The translations under genes were made by a program, and so were the position numbers. Positions 6,750 through 17,054 of a stretch of 22,465 nucleotides of DNA are shown piece by piece. Origin of the DNA: a virus (lineage: Duplodnaviria; Heunggongvirae; Uroviricota; Caudoviricetes); IMG/VR virus record IMGVR_UViG_3300020049_005532, positions 1 to 22,465 of that record. One strand, given 5' to 3'. Position 1 is the first letter of the stretch; the number at the start of each line of letters is the position of its first letter. The notes below the pieces were generated by a model that was given only the letters and a program-made list of their open reading frames with translations, was not told where the DNA came from and did not search any database.

Positions 6750-7502
6750 ATGGCCGCCATTTACGGGTTAATAGATCCTATTACTCAAGAATTAAAGTAC
6801 ATAGGTCAAACAATAAAATCTCCAGAAGTAAGACTAGAAGGTCATTTGCGTGATGCTAGGTATGCAAAATATGGAACTAAAAATATAAGATGGATCAAGT
6901 CTTTACAAGAAAAAGGAATTAATCCCGTTTTAGTGGTTTTGGAAAGCAATTTAGATATCAATCAATTAAATGAACTGGAAATTTTCTATATAGCGTATTT
7001 TAAATTTATTGGTTGCACTTTAAACAACATGACTCCTGGCGGATTAGGACATTTAAACCATGCCCCAAGTCTAGAAACCAGAAAAAAATTAAGCGATTCT
7101 CATAAAAAGAAAAAATGTATAGATTTAGAAACAGGAAAAATATATCCGTCTATGATGTCTGTGCATAGAGAATTTAATTTTCATCAAGGACATTTAAGTT
7201 ACTGTTTGGCAGGTAAAACAGCGTCAATTCATGGCAAATATTTTAGTTACTTACCTAAAAATGTTGAAGATTTATCTAAATGGAAAGCTGATGAGCTTTT
7301 AAAAAGACAATCAATAACACTAAAAGCTAACAATAAATCGTATTTACATAAAAAAATTCAATGTATTGAAACGGGTGAAATTTTTGATAGCCTAAAAGGT
7401 GCGTCAAAAAAACTAAAAGTAAAATCTAGTAGCATTTGTATGGTATTAAAGGGGAGTAGGTCTCGCGTTGGCGGATTTACTTTTAAGTATGTCCGAAATT
7501 AA
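6750..7502 (+). CDS. Free-standing GIY-YIG homing endonuclease with NUMOD3-like and two NUMOD1/IENR1-like DNA-binding repeats
   Basis: IYGLIDP...KYIGQT...RLEGH...LEIFYIA...LNNMTPGG; SLETRKKLSDSH; KKCIDLETGKIYPS and KKIQCIETGEIFDS repeats. Confidence 0.88.
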   Translation: MAAIYGLIDPITQELKYIGQTIKSPEVRLEGHLRDARYAKYGTKNIRWIKSLQEKGINPVLVVLESNLDINQLNELEIFYIAYFKFIGCTLNNMTPGGLGHLNHAPSLETRKKLSDSHKKKKCIDLETGKIYPSMMSVHREFNFHQGHLSYCLAGKTASIHGKYFSYLPKNVEDLSKWKADELLKRQSITLKANNKSYLHKKIQCIETGEIFDSLKGASKKLKVKSSSICMVLKGSRSRVGGFTFKYVRN

Positions 7503-11001: not shown

Positions 11002-12867
11002 ATGGGAAAAGAACAAGCCGGTAAAGGTATAGTTAAAGGATTTAATTCTTTACGGAAAGCTTTAGGGCTTGCCGATAATCTACCTTTAGAGCGTGCAGCA
11101 GAGGCAGCTGATCCAGCAGTATTAAACAAAGTAGATCAATTGCTGATGGGACAAGGAATTGATCCCCAATCTATTGGTACATATGAAGACAAGATTAAAA
11201 CTCTTATTACAAAACCCGACGCTTATGCTGAATACCGTAAAACTTTAAATGAAGTTTATGGTGCTGGAGATAACAGAGCGGAAGCTGCTAAATGGGGCAA
11301 TAAAGATTGGTTTCATGGAACTACTGTCCCAATTGATGAATTTAAAAAGGACGCGCTAGGTTTATCAACTAACGCAAAATCAGCAGAAAAAGGATTCTTT
11401 TTTACTGATCACGCTCCTACTGCCGGAGATTATTCTGACCTGGCAGCTAACTCCGGAATAATTAGAGAAGGCGATACAGTTACGACAAGAATGTTATCAG
11501 AAACCGCGCCGCTTTTAGATGATTTAGATGTTTCTTTAAGAGATGCAAATATGGAAAAACAATTTGCAATTGACAGTTTTCGCCGACAAGTAGACAGAAA
11601 TGATAATACTCAAAAGTTAATTGAGGCAATTAAAAATAGAGGCGAAAAAGATGAAATTGCGGAAAGATTACCAAAGTTACAAGCTGATTTAGCTCGTGGA
11701 GAAAAATTTATAATAGATCAACAATCTAAAATAAAAACTTTTGATGACCAAATTAAGAATTTAGATGACAAAATAAAATCTCAAGGCCAAAATGTTATAC
11801 CCGTTAAATTGAGAGCCAAAGATGGCAAAATACATGTAAAAGATTACAAAGGTCAAGGTTACAGAGATACAACATATGCCGATGAAATGACAAAGGCGCA
11901 AGAAAAAGGTAATAGTGGCGTATTGTTTAAAAATACATACGACCCAGCCGACCCTAATAATAGAGTTCAGCAAAACATTGCGGCGGTATTTGAACCAGAA
12001 CAAATTCGTTCTAAATTTGCAGCATTTGATCCAGCATTAAACAAAAGTAAATGGATTATGGCAGGCGCAGCTGGCGCAGCAATAAACATGTTACCAGAAG
12101 AATCAGAAGGAAGCATGGCAAATCCAAAAAGTTTTAAACAATTAGCAGAAATAGCAAAATTTAAACAAGGTTATGTTGTACCAAAACCGCACAACATGGG
12201 TACACCAAAGATTACCGATATGGGTAATGTTAAATTTGAAACAGCTGAAGATGGCATGAAAACAATCATTCGACTTCCTGATGGCAAAACATTTAATGTT
12301 ACAAGCGATAAGGGCGATAGCCTTAATATGGCACAAGAGATGATCTATGGTCGTTCACCTAGCCAACCTGGCACTGGTAGCATGGGCGAGCCTGGTAAGA
12401 TCTCTGGCGATGTAGCTGGCACAATGGAGCGTTCACTAGATGAAACACAAGTGATTGAGCCTAAGTTCTCCGGTGATATTCCAGTTAAGAAGTCTGGTGG
12501 TTTTGTTGGAGCAGGGCTTGCTGGACAAGACGGTTTTGGTATGATGAAGGATTCTGCCAAAGACATGCTCTCCGGACTTAAACAAGGGTTTGATAAGTAT
12601 AGAGAAGTTGCCGTAAAGCCGGTTTCTGATAAACTTAAAAAGACGCTTACTCCAGATATTAATGTAGGAAAAGAGTCTTACCCGACTTCAAGCGTTGCTT
12701 CAGATTTTATTCTTGAAAATGCACCAGATGCAACAAATTATGTTGCTGGCGGAGTGGGAGCAGCAGTCGGAGCTTCAGATCTAGCGTCTAGTTTTGTGGA
12801 CGACGAGGAAGCTAAGAAGCGCGAATTAAACTTTGGCGGACTAAGAAGCATTTTAAACAAGAAATAG
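11002..12867 (+). CDS. Multidomain protein with an ADP-ribosyltransferase-like (ART-PolyVal type) domain; probable virion-associated protein
   Basis: WFHGT, KGFFFT..A..Y, VIPVKL, GNSGVLFKNTYD and AVFEPEQIRSKFAAFDP motifs; located between portal and scaffold. Confidence 0.7.
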   Translation: MGKEQAGKGIVKGFNSLRKALGLADNLPLERAAEAADPAVLNKVDQLLMGQGIDPQSIGTYEDKIKTLITKPDAYAEYRKTLNEVYGAGDNRAEAAKWGNKDWFHGTTVPIDEFKKDALGLSTNAKSAEKGFFFTDHAPTAGDYSDLAANSGIIREGDTVTTRMLSETAPLLDDLDVSLRDANMEKQFAIDSFRRQVDRNDNTQKLIEAIKNRGEKDEIAERLPKLQADLARGEKFIIDQQSKIKTFDDQIKNLDDKIKSQGQNVIPVKLRAKDGKIHVKDYKGQGYRDTTYADEMTKAQEKGNSGVLFKNTYDPADPNNRVQQNIAAVFEPEQIRSKFAAFDPALNKSKWIMAGAAGAAINMLPEESEGSMANPKSFKQLAEIAKFKQGYVVPKPHNMGTPKITDMGNVKFETAEDGMKTIIRLPDGKTFNVTSDKGDSLNMAQEMIYGRSPSQPGTGSMGEPGKISGDVAGTMERSLDETQVIEPKFSGDIPVKKSGGFVGAGLAGQDGFGMMKDSAKDMLSGLKQGFDKYREVAVKPVSDKLKKTLTPDINVGKESYPTSSVASDFILENAPDATNYVAGGVGAAVGASDLASSFVDDEEAKKRELNFGGLRSILNKK

Positions 12868-14522: not shown

Positions 14523-14693
14523 ATGGCTACTACTAACGCATTTAGTACCCCAGATAATACCGTAGGTAATCTGAATGGTATGTTCAAGGAAGTTTACGCG
14601 GATAAACTACAAGATCTTCTTCCGGACGGAGTAATCCTTTTGAAGGAAATCAAGTTTAACGGTAAAGACAAGCAACCAGGAAATCTTTTCCAT
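14523..14693 (+). CDS. MCP exon 1 (57 codons)
   Basis: MATTNAFSTPDNTVGNLNGMFKEVYADKL...PGNLFH, then an in-frame TAA that is the first three bases of intron 1. Confidence 0.85.
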
Positions 14694-17009
14694 TAATAGC
14701 TGGTGGAATTAAAATTTTCTCTAATTGACTCGAACATCCAGAAGTGGACAACGAGGCGGAAGCGAAAGCACCGTGAGAGACTAAGCGAGAAGACTGTAGA
14801 AATACAGATGCAATAGTCCGATCTACCGCATAACCCAAGAAACGGTAGAGATAAGCAGAAATGACTTATCCCTTTTGACCAAAGGTAACAAACACCGCAG
14901 CCGGTAATTTTAGGTCACGAGCATAAACAAAATTAAACTGTGCTCATTAAATTTTCTCTAATTGACTTGGAACTCCAGAAGTGGACAACAAGGGCGAAGA
15001 CTTAGGTCACGCTGAGAGACTAAACGAGAAAACACTTGACAAACATTAAAAATGATGTTAATATAGTGATGCGATAGTCCGAACACTGATATAACCCAGG
15101 AAGTCAGTGAGATAGACAGAAATGTTCTATCCGGTTTTTAGGAAGAAAACTAGTAACAAATTGGGTGTAACTTTTGCAGGACCGGAAGATGACGGGTTCA
15201 ATTTGAACGCGCCCATCGCCAGTTCGATCAAAGACGCACAGGTAAACTAAGTGCCTGTCCCTACAGTGATGTAGGTGAAAAAACTGAGGAAATTGCTGGA
15301 AAGCTAAAGTTTTTATGAGACGCGGCGTCATTTACAGAATTACAAATTTACTTAACGGTAAGGAATATTATGGCCAAACCGTTAATGCTGATCCGATTCA
15401 GAGATGGTACGCACATTGTTCTAAATGTAGAACAAGCGCAGTAAATCTCGCGATTCAAAAGTACGGAAAAGCTAATTTTAAGTTTGAAATAATCTGTAGT
15501 GCCAAGTCAATTGAAGATTTAAACTATTTAGAACAATACTTCATTGCTAAATATCAAACTCTTGCTCCAACCGGATATAATCTGGACATAGGAGGAAGAA
15601 ATTGTTTAAAAAGTAAAGAAAGTATTGAAAAAGGTAACATAAAACGTAGACTTAAGATTTTTAAAGATCGGCGTCGAGGAATTATTGCTACCCATTCAGA
15701 AAATGGTCACATTATTGAGACCGAAATAGTTAAAGACTTTCTTAACTTTGGATTTACTAAAAACGACCTATCAAATATTCGATGGGTGTTAACTGGTAAA
15801 GGTTCTAAAAAAAGAGTTAAGAAATACTTCTTCAAATATAGAGACCAAGTCAATCAGAGCCTAATCGTAGAAGATAACATGTCTACGGCGGCGCAACGAC
15901 TCGACAGTGAAACCGAGTAATCGGAATATAATCTGTCCAAGAGACCTCAGCCCTTCAAATAGAAGGTGAAGATATAGTCTGAACTTATAGGAAACTATAA
16001 GAAGTAGGGGATAAAAAGCCTTTACGATAACAACCCTTGACGAGGGTGCCCAGCAGTTCTTCGTTCGCTTCTCGGCTACAACGCTGCGTCGCGAGCACAA
16101 GGTTCGCAAGCTGCTTTCATGGATGCAACAAAATATGTTGTATCGAACATGCTGCGCTCTATGTCTAAGAAACTCGAAATCGAGCTTCTCTACGGACAAA
16201 TGGGTTATGCTACAGTTAACGCAGGTACTACTGCTTCTACTCAGTTTGTTGTAAAACTTGCTGAATGGGCACCAGGTATCTGGGCTGGAGCAGAGGGTCT
16301 TCCAATCGAAGTACGTTCGTCTGACGGCGCGACATCGCGTGGTGAGAACATCGTAACTGCGGTTGACATGGACACTCGCACGATCACTATGCAATCGGCA
16401 ATGACGCTGACTGCTGACGACGTTGTATGGCACAAAGGTGCTTACGGTAAAGAATTCGCAGGTATCCATAAGATCCTGTCGCAAACTTCCGGCACACTTT
16501 TCAACATCAACGTTGGTAACTACGGTATCTTCCGTGGTAACTCGTACAACGTTTCAGGCGCTTTGACACAAGCAAAACTTGGTCTTGCTCTGACTCGTGC
16601 AGTAGAAAAAGGTCTTGATTCAAAAGTTCTCGCTTTGGTTAACCCAAAAGCATGGACTAACATGATGAACGACCAAGCAGCATTGCGCAAGTATGATTCG
16701 TCATACTCGTCAGCAAAAGCTGAAAACGGAACACAGAAGCTTGTCTTCTTCTCGCAGAATGGCGAAATCGAAGTTCGTCCATCTACTTTCATTAAAGAAG
16801 GTTATGGATTCGTTCTCGATATGTCGGCATGGCTCCGAGTTGGTTCGCAAGAGATCTCTTTCAAAATGCCAGGATCAGGTGACGAGTATGTACTCCACCG
16901 CCCAGATCAAGCTGGTTACGAGATGCGTCTCTTCACTGACCAAGCTATCTTCACACATAAGCCTGGCACATCGGTCATCTTGACTGGTATTGTCAACGCT
17001 ACATCGTAA
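14523..17009 (+). CDS. Major capsid protein, spliced: join(14523..14693,14898..14924,15164..15243,16040..17009), 415 aa
   Basis: AAGGAG RBS before ATG 14523. Removing three U|...G| introns gives 1248 nt in one open frame: ...KQPGNLFH|QPVILGHEH|GVTFAGPEDDGFNLNAPIASSIKDAQV|RGCPAVLRSLLGYNAASRAQGSQAAFMDATKYVVSNMLR... Confidence 0.9.
14694..14897 (+). ncRNA. Group I intron 1 (204 nt, no ORF)
   Basis: P1: exon UUCCAU pairs with GUGGAA (14703-14708) with a U.G splice pair. P10: GCUG pairs with exon CAGC. P7: GACU/AGUC (GAGAGACTAA...ATAGTCCGA). P5 TCCA-GAAG-TGGA; P8 CTGTA-GAAA-TACAG; terminal G14897. Confidence 0.9.
14898..14924 (+). other. MCP exon 2, 27-nt micro-exon (QPVILGHEH)
   Basis: Bounded by the terminal G of intron 1 and the U of the intron 2 P1 helix; preserves the frame. 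Confidence 0.85.
14925..15163 (+). ncRNA. Group I intron 2 (239 nt, no ORF), sibling of intron 1
   Basis: P1: exon GAGCAU pairs with GUGCUC (14940-14945). Core blocks are shared with intron 1; P7 GACU/AGUC; ends GTAACAAATTG. Confidence 0.9.
15036..15064 (+). promoter_or_regulatory. sigma70-like promoter inside the P8 extension of intron 2
   Basis: TTGACA (15036-15041), 17 bp ending TGT, TAATAT (15059-15064); same hexamers and spacing as the promoter at 783-811. Confidence 0.55.
15244..16039 (+). mobile_element. Group I intron 3 (796 nt) carrying a GIY-YIG homing endonuclease
   Basis: P1: exon ACAGGU pairs with GCCUGU (15253-15258). P2 CCTACA/TGTAGG; P3 CTGAGG (15284-89)/CCTCAG (15945-50); AATTGCTGGAAA; P7 GACT (15898-901)/AGTC in GAAGATATAGTC; P9 CTTATAG-GAAA-CTATAAG; terminal G16039. 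Confidence 0.9.
15315..15920 (+). CDS. Intron-encoded GIY-YIG homing endonuclease
   Basis: GVIYRITNLLNGKEYYGQT...QRWYAH...KYG...F.FEII...LEQYFIAKY...GYNLDIGG. Confidence 0.88.
   Translation: MRRGVIYRITNLLNGKEYYGQTVNADPIQRWYAHCSKCRTSAVNLAIQKYGKANFKFEIICSAKSIEDLNYLEQYFIAKYQTLAPTGYNLDIGGRNCLKSKESIEKGNIKRRLKIFKDRRRGIIATHSENGHIIETEIVKDFLNFGFTKNDLSNIRWVLTGKGSKKRVKKYFFKYRDQVNQSLIVEDNMSTAAQRLDSETE
16040..17009 (+). CDS. MCP exon 4 (contains the track ORF 16119-17009)
   Basis: The frame is open from 16041 (RGCPAVLRSLLGY) through MDATK... to TAA 17007-17009. Confidence 0.88.
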
Positions 17010-17021
17010 TTGATGTAACTT

Positions 17022-17052
17022 AAAGGGGGCCCTTCGGGGCTCCTTTTTTTTT
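17022..17052 (+). terminator. Rho-independent terminator after the MCP (possibly bidirectional)
   Basis: AAAGGGGGCCC-TTCG-GGGCTCCTTT stem with a C(UUCG)G tetraloop and a long T tract; the convergent accessory block ends at 17055. Confidence 0.9.
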
Positions 17053-17054
17053 AT

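Follow-up and report, generated by a model that had tools for sequence, protein, structure and literature searches.

Mosaic group I introns around a 27-nt exon in a phage capsid gene and a candidate promoter that may serve the endonuclease of a neighboring intron

Introduction

The closest described counterpart of the locus analyzed here is orf142 of the Staphylococcus phage Twort, originally reported by Landthaler and Shub in 1999 and summarized in PMC10136302 and PMC3073962. According to these summaries, orf142 is interrupted by three introns of group I, of which introns 2 and 3 form a similar pair around a 23-nt exon; the two are highly similar IA2 introns, and skipping of the exon between them has been observed. 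The window, a 22,465-nt stretch that is part of an 86-kb virus record, holds a comparable pair around a 27-nt exon in its capsid gene. Compared to the Twort introns, however, the window pair has a core identity of about 71%, is without P2 and P7.1/P7.2, and is known here from sequence alone.

In crAss-like phages, group I introns typically lie in the major capsid protein (MCP) gene, and one MCP is divided into five fragments (PMC7886860). These phages belong to another group, however, and micro-exons, ORF-less cores, and promoters were not resolved in that work. In phage T4, intron-encoded GIY-YIG genes (I-TevI/II/III) possess dedicated promoters within the intron (PMC2988022). Whereas the T4 promoters are of the phage middle or late type and are located immediately upstream in the same intron, the candidate promoter in the window is of a host type and is placed about 250 nt upstream, in another intron that has no ORF.

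In collaborative or trans homing, as described for F-CphI of S-PM2 and mobE of T4, an intron without an endonuclease spreads by means of a neighboring one (PMC2988022, PMC3984707, PMC2790892). In these cases a free-standing gene encodes the endonuclease, which gains nothing from the intron, while the endonuclease gene of the window is part of another intron and its transcription would rely on the passenger. Gene conversion within the omega introns of yeast mitochondria results in chimeric cores and confounded trees (PMC4059233), but the omega introns are alleles at one site, whereas the patches in the window introns appear to move between different insertion sites.

Both tandem introns around a micro-exon and capsid genes rich in introns have been described before (PMC10136302, PMC3073962, PMC7886860), and promoter sharing is the more novel point. 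A literature search covering few subscription journals returned no description of a promoter lent to the endonuclease of the next intron. If true, such sharing would offer a reason for the persistence of introns without an endonuclease in phage genes, and would extend collaborative homing to selfish elements that depend on each other.

The capsid gene and its introns

The gene order at the locus is terminase, portal, ART-like gene, probable scaffold, small gene, and capsid. Removal of the three introns (Table 1) leaves an open capsid frame of 416 aa, and the junctions of the spliced gene are the same as in the intronless homologues P0001 and P0002; splicing of introns 1 to 3 was inferred because the reading frame is restored. 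A model of P0001 (92% identical, pTM 0.78) matched SU10, HK97, and other capsids with E values down to 6e-10, and on the strength of this predicted fold the gene is that of an HK97-fold major capsid protein. Among GenBank phages, short matches and one distant capsid, from a Silvanigrella phage, were all that was found. Gene callers truncate capsid genes of this type (282 of 416 aa in the window genome), which is of practical relevance. An assembly artefact was considered and rejected, as introns 1 and 2 have diverged from each other and independent samples have introns at the same sites.

Three other features were observed in the window. Positions 1-78 and 598-675 form an exact 78-nt direct repeat at the start of the contig, representing a terminal repeat or an assembly effect. 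A free-standing endonuclease-like ORF with a NUMOD-like domain (6750-7502) overlaps the start of the terminase gene, and the protein encoded at 11002-12867, between the portal and the probable scaffold gene, contains an ART-PolyVal domain.

Table 1. Positions of the capsid exons, introns, and associated elements in the window
Feature	Position	Strand	Description
Capsid exon 1	14523..14693	+	57 codons, the last one His CAU
Intron 1	14694..14897	+	ORF-less group I intron, 204 nt, after codon 57
Intron 1 P10 strand	14699-14702		GCUG
Intron 1 guide	14703-14708		GUGGAA
Exon 2	14898..14924	+	27 nt, QPVILGHEH, residues 58-66
Intron 2	14925..15163	+	ORF-less group I intron, 239 nt, after codon 66
Intron 2 guide	14940-14945		GUGCUC
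Intron 2 extended P8 hairpin	15033..15068	+	Holds the sigma70-type promoter consensus
Exon 3	15164..15243	+	80 nt
Intron 3	15244..16039	+	796-nt group I intron from a different subfamily, inserted after codon 92 in phase 2
GIY-YIG endonuclease ORF	15315..15920	+	201 aa, within intron 3
Capsid exon 4	16040..17009	+	
Intrinsic terminator	17022..17054	+	Would bound any transcript begun in intron 2

The first-pass annotation had described introns 1 and 2 as endonuclease-free siblings with identical blocks and separately retargeted guide sequences, and its anatomical claims were borne out. The shared blocks include a 19-mer (14712-30/14949-67) and a 16-mer (14737-52/14974-89), followed by blocks at 14774/15013 (TGAGAGACTAA), 14813/15074 (ATAGTCCGA), 14856/15117 (CAGAAATG), and 14885/15153 (GTAACAAA). 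Each guide pairs with the end of its own exon, with U.G at the splice site of a 6-7 bp P1. Exons 1 and 2 both end in CAU, and both introns are in phase 0 and end in the terminal omega G. The longest stop-free stretches, 38 aa in intron 1 and 27 aa in intron 2, leave no ORF.

The global alignment of introns 1 and 2 scored 121, compared to a mean of -37 and a maximum of -3 for shuffled sequences. Across 104 subfamily members, in a sequence-profile alignment that is not structure-fitted, P3, P4, P5, P6, P8, P9, and P9.1 covary, and P7 shows an invariant G-C together with one covarying pair. None of the three introns reached the gathering cut-off of the Rfam model RF00028 (50 bits): intron 3 scored 42.1 bits, intron 2 scored 20.7 bits, and intron 1 gave no match. 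This model is known to miss phage variants (PMC11878797). P7.1 and P7.2, which characterize subgroup IA2, are absent from introns 1 and 2, where P3' follows P7 after 3-4 nt. Judged from their sequences, introns 1 and 2 are independent group I introns of one widespread phage subfamily, and both are predicted to be self-splicing.

The P9.1 loop of intron 2 contains an ATG whose reading frame is that of exon 3 and extends to a stop in the P1 loop of intron 3 (window 15122-15250). The equivalent ATG is also in frame in the codon-66 intron of locus L412. Since this arrangement is found in only 3 of 28 subfamily introns and is not general, the in-frame AUG was dropped as evidence. In addition, a 25-nt inverted match (84% complementary) that may be due to chance was noted between the core of intron 2 (14955-14979) and the GIY-YIG coding sequence (15493-15517).

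An intron hot spot in the capsid gene

Related loci were surveyed by spliced alignment and by Logan/ENA look-ups. Forty-three distinct intron-bearing capsid loci were found, with 22 insertion sites, 20 of which lie between codons 20 and 92. The subfamily of introns 1 and 2 sits at codons 24, 57, 59, 63, 66, and 389 and is widespread in other phage genes, with at least 118 matches. Every state of occupancy was encountered at the two sites of the window: neither is filled in L085 and most relatives, the codon-57 site only is filled in 15 loci, the codon-66 site is filled without the codon-57 site in L412, and both are filled in the window only. Codon 57 is thus occupied in 16 loci and codon 66 in two. 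When codon-66 introns were sought with a pattern scan, the loci returned did not contain this capsid.

Among 39 internal exons in these loci, 16 are at most 30 nt long and 11 are shorter than 27 nt, with a minimum of 12 nt. Because 16 of 39 internal exons across the 43 loci fall within 30 nt, the 27-nt micro-exon is ordinary for this phage family. With zero to five introns and exons of 12-30 nt, these loci form a natural series in which the avoidance of exon skipping by tandem ribozymes could be tested. A similar arrangement was observed in another gene, in which two subfamily introns surround a 17-nt exon (L111 850-1290; also L120, L129, and L148); the first intron of this pair occurs on its own in L086 and the second in L102 and L139.

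A mosaic core in intron 1 and a possible one in intron 2

The blocks shared by introns 1 and 2 are mostly consensus. Four of the six are found exactly in 16-26 of the 34 other subfamily capsid introns, while the 16-mer is exact in four and the 19-mer in one. On this distribution, these four "identical blocks" are the conserved core of a widespread phage intron subfamily. The core identity of the pair, about 71%, compares with a background median of 64-66%. When the 35 capsid introns are ranked by core identity, intron 2 is 21st for intron 1 and intron 1 is fourth for intron 2, and no segment of either intron finds its best match in its partner. The proposal that one lineage colonized a second site 27 nt away is upheld as far as the common subfamily, the site-specific guides, and the colonization of many sites in the gene are concerned, but not in making the two introns each other's closest kin.

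Individual segments of the introns instead match introns at other sites. From P3 to P9, intron 1 is identical at 133 of 143 nt (93%) to the codon-59 phase-2 intron of L412 but beyond this stretch the two differ, and the 3' end of intron 1 is similar to that of other codon-57 introns; a max-chi test supported the breakpoint (p about 0.0003). The P9 of intron 1 is 97% identical to that of a codon-63 intron from a distant phage. The P8 of intron 2 has 48 of 52 nt in common with the P8 of the L410 codon-59 intron and also matches the L082 codon-57 intron, and its 3' end is best matched by the other codon-66 intron, that of L412. No significant recombination breakpoint was detected in intron 2 (p 0.3-0.6).

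Three free maximum-likelihood trees, built from a short and mosaic alignment, separate introns 1 and 2. In AU tests on the same kind of alignment, a sister constraint was not rejected (p 0.61, 0.25, and 0.55), and the constrained tree beat the free search twice. The case against a sister pairing accordingly rests on the segment identities. Collectively, these results suggest that intron ends follow the insertion site and that cores have been exchanged in patches, a pattern clear for intron 1 and suggested by the P8 of intron 2, with recombination as the inferred cause of the mosaic cores. Introns 1 and 2 are members of one subfamily with no demonstrable recent duplication. Core exchange among non-allelic introns warns against reading intron trees as histories of transposition.

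A candidate promoter in the P8 hairpin of intron 2

The extended P8 of intron 2 contains a sigma70-type consensus, TTGACA-17-TAATAT with a TG extension, at positions 15036-15064. The hexamers match at 10 of 12 positions, plus the TG, and the score is 12.4 of 15.5 possible with a weight matrix that approximates E. coli and may not be the host's. This is the top match between 12800 and 17200 and about the sixth best on the plus strand of the 86-kb genome, whose best promoter matches share the TTGACA-17-TAnnnT type; one of 400 shuffled sequences reached its score. Located in a separate, ORF-less intron, the candidate promoter faces the GIY-YIG gene about 250 nt downstream. Intron 3 itself lacks a promoter in front of its ORF (score 1.1), and no clear ribosome-binding site precedes the GIY-YIG start. 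A transcript initiated in P8 would stop at the intrinsic terminator and could code only for the GIY-YIG protein of intron 3 or a truncated capsid protein.

In L082, L004, and L044, the same P8 module precedes the endonuclease gene of the intron in which it lies. Of 16 introns with a GIY-YIG gene in the P5 loop, 12 have their own promoter (scores of 7.9-13.3) and four do not (1.1-6.3), and each of these four follows an ORF-less intron scoring 12.4-14.5. The four high scorers, the only ones among 34 ORF-less capsid introns to score 12 or more, are the codon-66 intron of the window, the codon-59 introns of L002 and L410, and the codon-63 intron of L074. The other 86 of the 90 ORF-less introns, 30 in capsid genes and 56 elsewhere, score below 11, the latter never exceeding 9.3. 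The codon-66 intron of L412 has a short P8 with no promoter and no endonuclease downstream, and in L007, L041, and L407 long but decayed P8 modules are followed by an endonuclease gene with its own promoter.

The correlation between neighboring introns gave Fisher p values of 0.0014 (13 pairs) and 0.008 (10 independent pairs) with thresholds set post hoc, and Spearman p values of 0.026 and 0.12, respectively; it is a post-hoc correlation involving three lineages only. The L074 case is weaker, as its endonuclease is truncated at 102 aa and its -35 box lies where the P9.1 loop favors it. Thirteen other endonuclease introns have no scored promoter at all, and 12 of these are the first intron in the gene; such endonuclease genes are thus probably readable from the capsid mRNA. 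Out-of-sample scans for the correlation returned known loci or chance matches only, so that the capsid set supplies all of its positive cases. None of the relatives of the intron 3 GIY-YIG gene lies in this capsid gene.

Two further promoter arrangements were observed. In introns after codons 67-90 of L007, L015, L027, L028, L044, and L407, the GIY-YIG genes appear to be leaderless: the conserved P4 strand forms the -35 box, and 6-7 nt separate the end of the -10 box from the ATG. In the codon-77 intron of L016, L122, and L165, a strong promoter begins on the last exon base and spans the exon-intron junction.

Competing explanations

The explanation that we favor, with chances that seem a little better than even, is that independent introns occupy a hot spot, that their cores are mosaic, and that the promoter in P8 of intron 2 serves the GIY-YIG gene of intron 3. 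Intron ends would be specific to their sites, and cores would be exchanged in patches with subfamily introns that occupy neighboring sites in related phages. Intron 2 would have lost, or never had, an endonuclease of its own, yet it carries the P8 promoter module. From its position and the comparative correlation, this promoter most likely transcribes the promoterless GIY-YIG gene. Cleavage by the GIY-YIG enzyme near codon 92 would co-convert nearby ORF-less introns, and the promoter may have been kept for this reason; in T4 introns, flanks are known to be co-converted (PMC2988022). The wider proposition, that the hot-spot introns form a cooperating cluster in which an ORF-less intron lends a hairpin promoter and rides on homing, while modules including P8 recombine between sites, could equally well be right or wrong. 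Under the same mosaic history, the P8 promoter could also be a neutral relic from an endonuclease that intron 2 once had, or the passenger of a recent transfer of a P8 patch, with the GIY-YIG gene read from capsid mRNA. This P8 module is characteristic of endonuclease-encoding subfamily introns, and it is nearly unchanged in L410 and L082, so that the transfer may be recent; the 13 endonuclease introns with no scored promoter and the lack of a significant rank correlation on independent pairs point in the same direction. We consider a relic or passenger rather unlikely, however, since the hexamers and the 17-nt spacing persist in L002 and L408 compared to the window despite a differing spacer sequence, and intact copies in ORF-less introns are found only ahead of promoterless endonuclease genes (four of four, and none in the other 86 ORF-less introns).

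The first-pass reading of how the pair arose, in which the lineage of intron 1 transposed 27 nt downstream by reverse splicing aided by the shared CAU and the guide was then retargeted, appears improbable. The two introns do belong to the same subfamily, their 19-mer occurs exactly in only one other capsid intron, the fourth rank of intron 1 for intron 2 and the unrejected pairing in the AU tests are compatible with it, and an old duplication could have been obscured by subsequent exchange of patches. However, the core identity is near the background median, every segment has closer relatives at other sites and in other phages, L412 has the codon-66 intron without the codon-57 intron, subfamily introns also follow exon ends other than CAU, and the RNA route is without direct experimental evidence according to PMC3984707. 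Patchwise recombination between introns at neighboring sites would explain the cores better than this duplication.

Exon skipping and the nine residues

The first-pass annotation had also pointed out that splicing from the 5' site of intron 1 to the 3' site of intron 2 would give an in-frame capsid isoform lacking nine residues. Both introns being in phase 0, such a product is possible as an in-frame by-product, but a working isoform is unlikely. An alternative-splicing device yielding a functional capsid protein without residues 58-66 would draw on this common phase, on the P3 and P7 strands of the two introns, which can cross-pair and make a chimeric single ribozyme feasible, and on Twort orf142, where the 23-nt exon between similar introns is skipped according to the summary in PMC10136302. 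The same source gives Coxiella 23S rRNA as a further precedent for exon skipping.

The pairing energies and the protein itself make such a device highly improbable. The guide of intron 2 pairs with the end of exon 1 at +0.4 kcal/mol compared to -8.3 on its own exon end, and the P10 of intron 1 is worth -4.5 on exon 2 compared to -0.7 on exon 3; such P1/P10 differences suppress skipping in engineered tandem introns. Residues P59, L62, G63, E65, and H66 are invariant in 98 full-length homologues, none of which is without the segment, and the exon 2 residues lie mostly within a strand predicted by the model at 55-64. Furthermore, the length of neighboring exons in relatives is frequently not divisible by three (13, 14, 19, and 29 nt). 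Each intron would be removed via its own P1 and P10, and the 27-nt exon would normally be kept. Low-level skipping may occur, but a functional isoform is unlikely because P1 and P10 differ and the nine residues form a near-invariant strand.

Related arrangements were noted in other capsid loci. In L404 (3160-3597), introns after codons 57 and 63 share 33 identical nt around a 19-nt exon, and L406 (1039-1240) has a single fused intron without the 19-nt exon, which reflects either a real recombination deletion or, more probably, a collapse of the repeat during assembly. The close relatives L002 (2011-5222) and L408 carry five capsid introns, one of them close to the 3' end, as well as a 13-nt exon.
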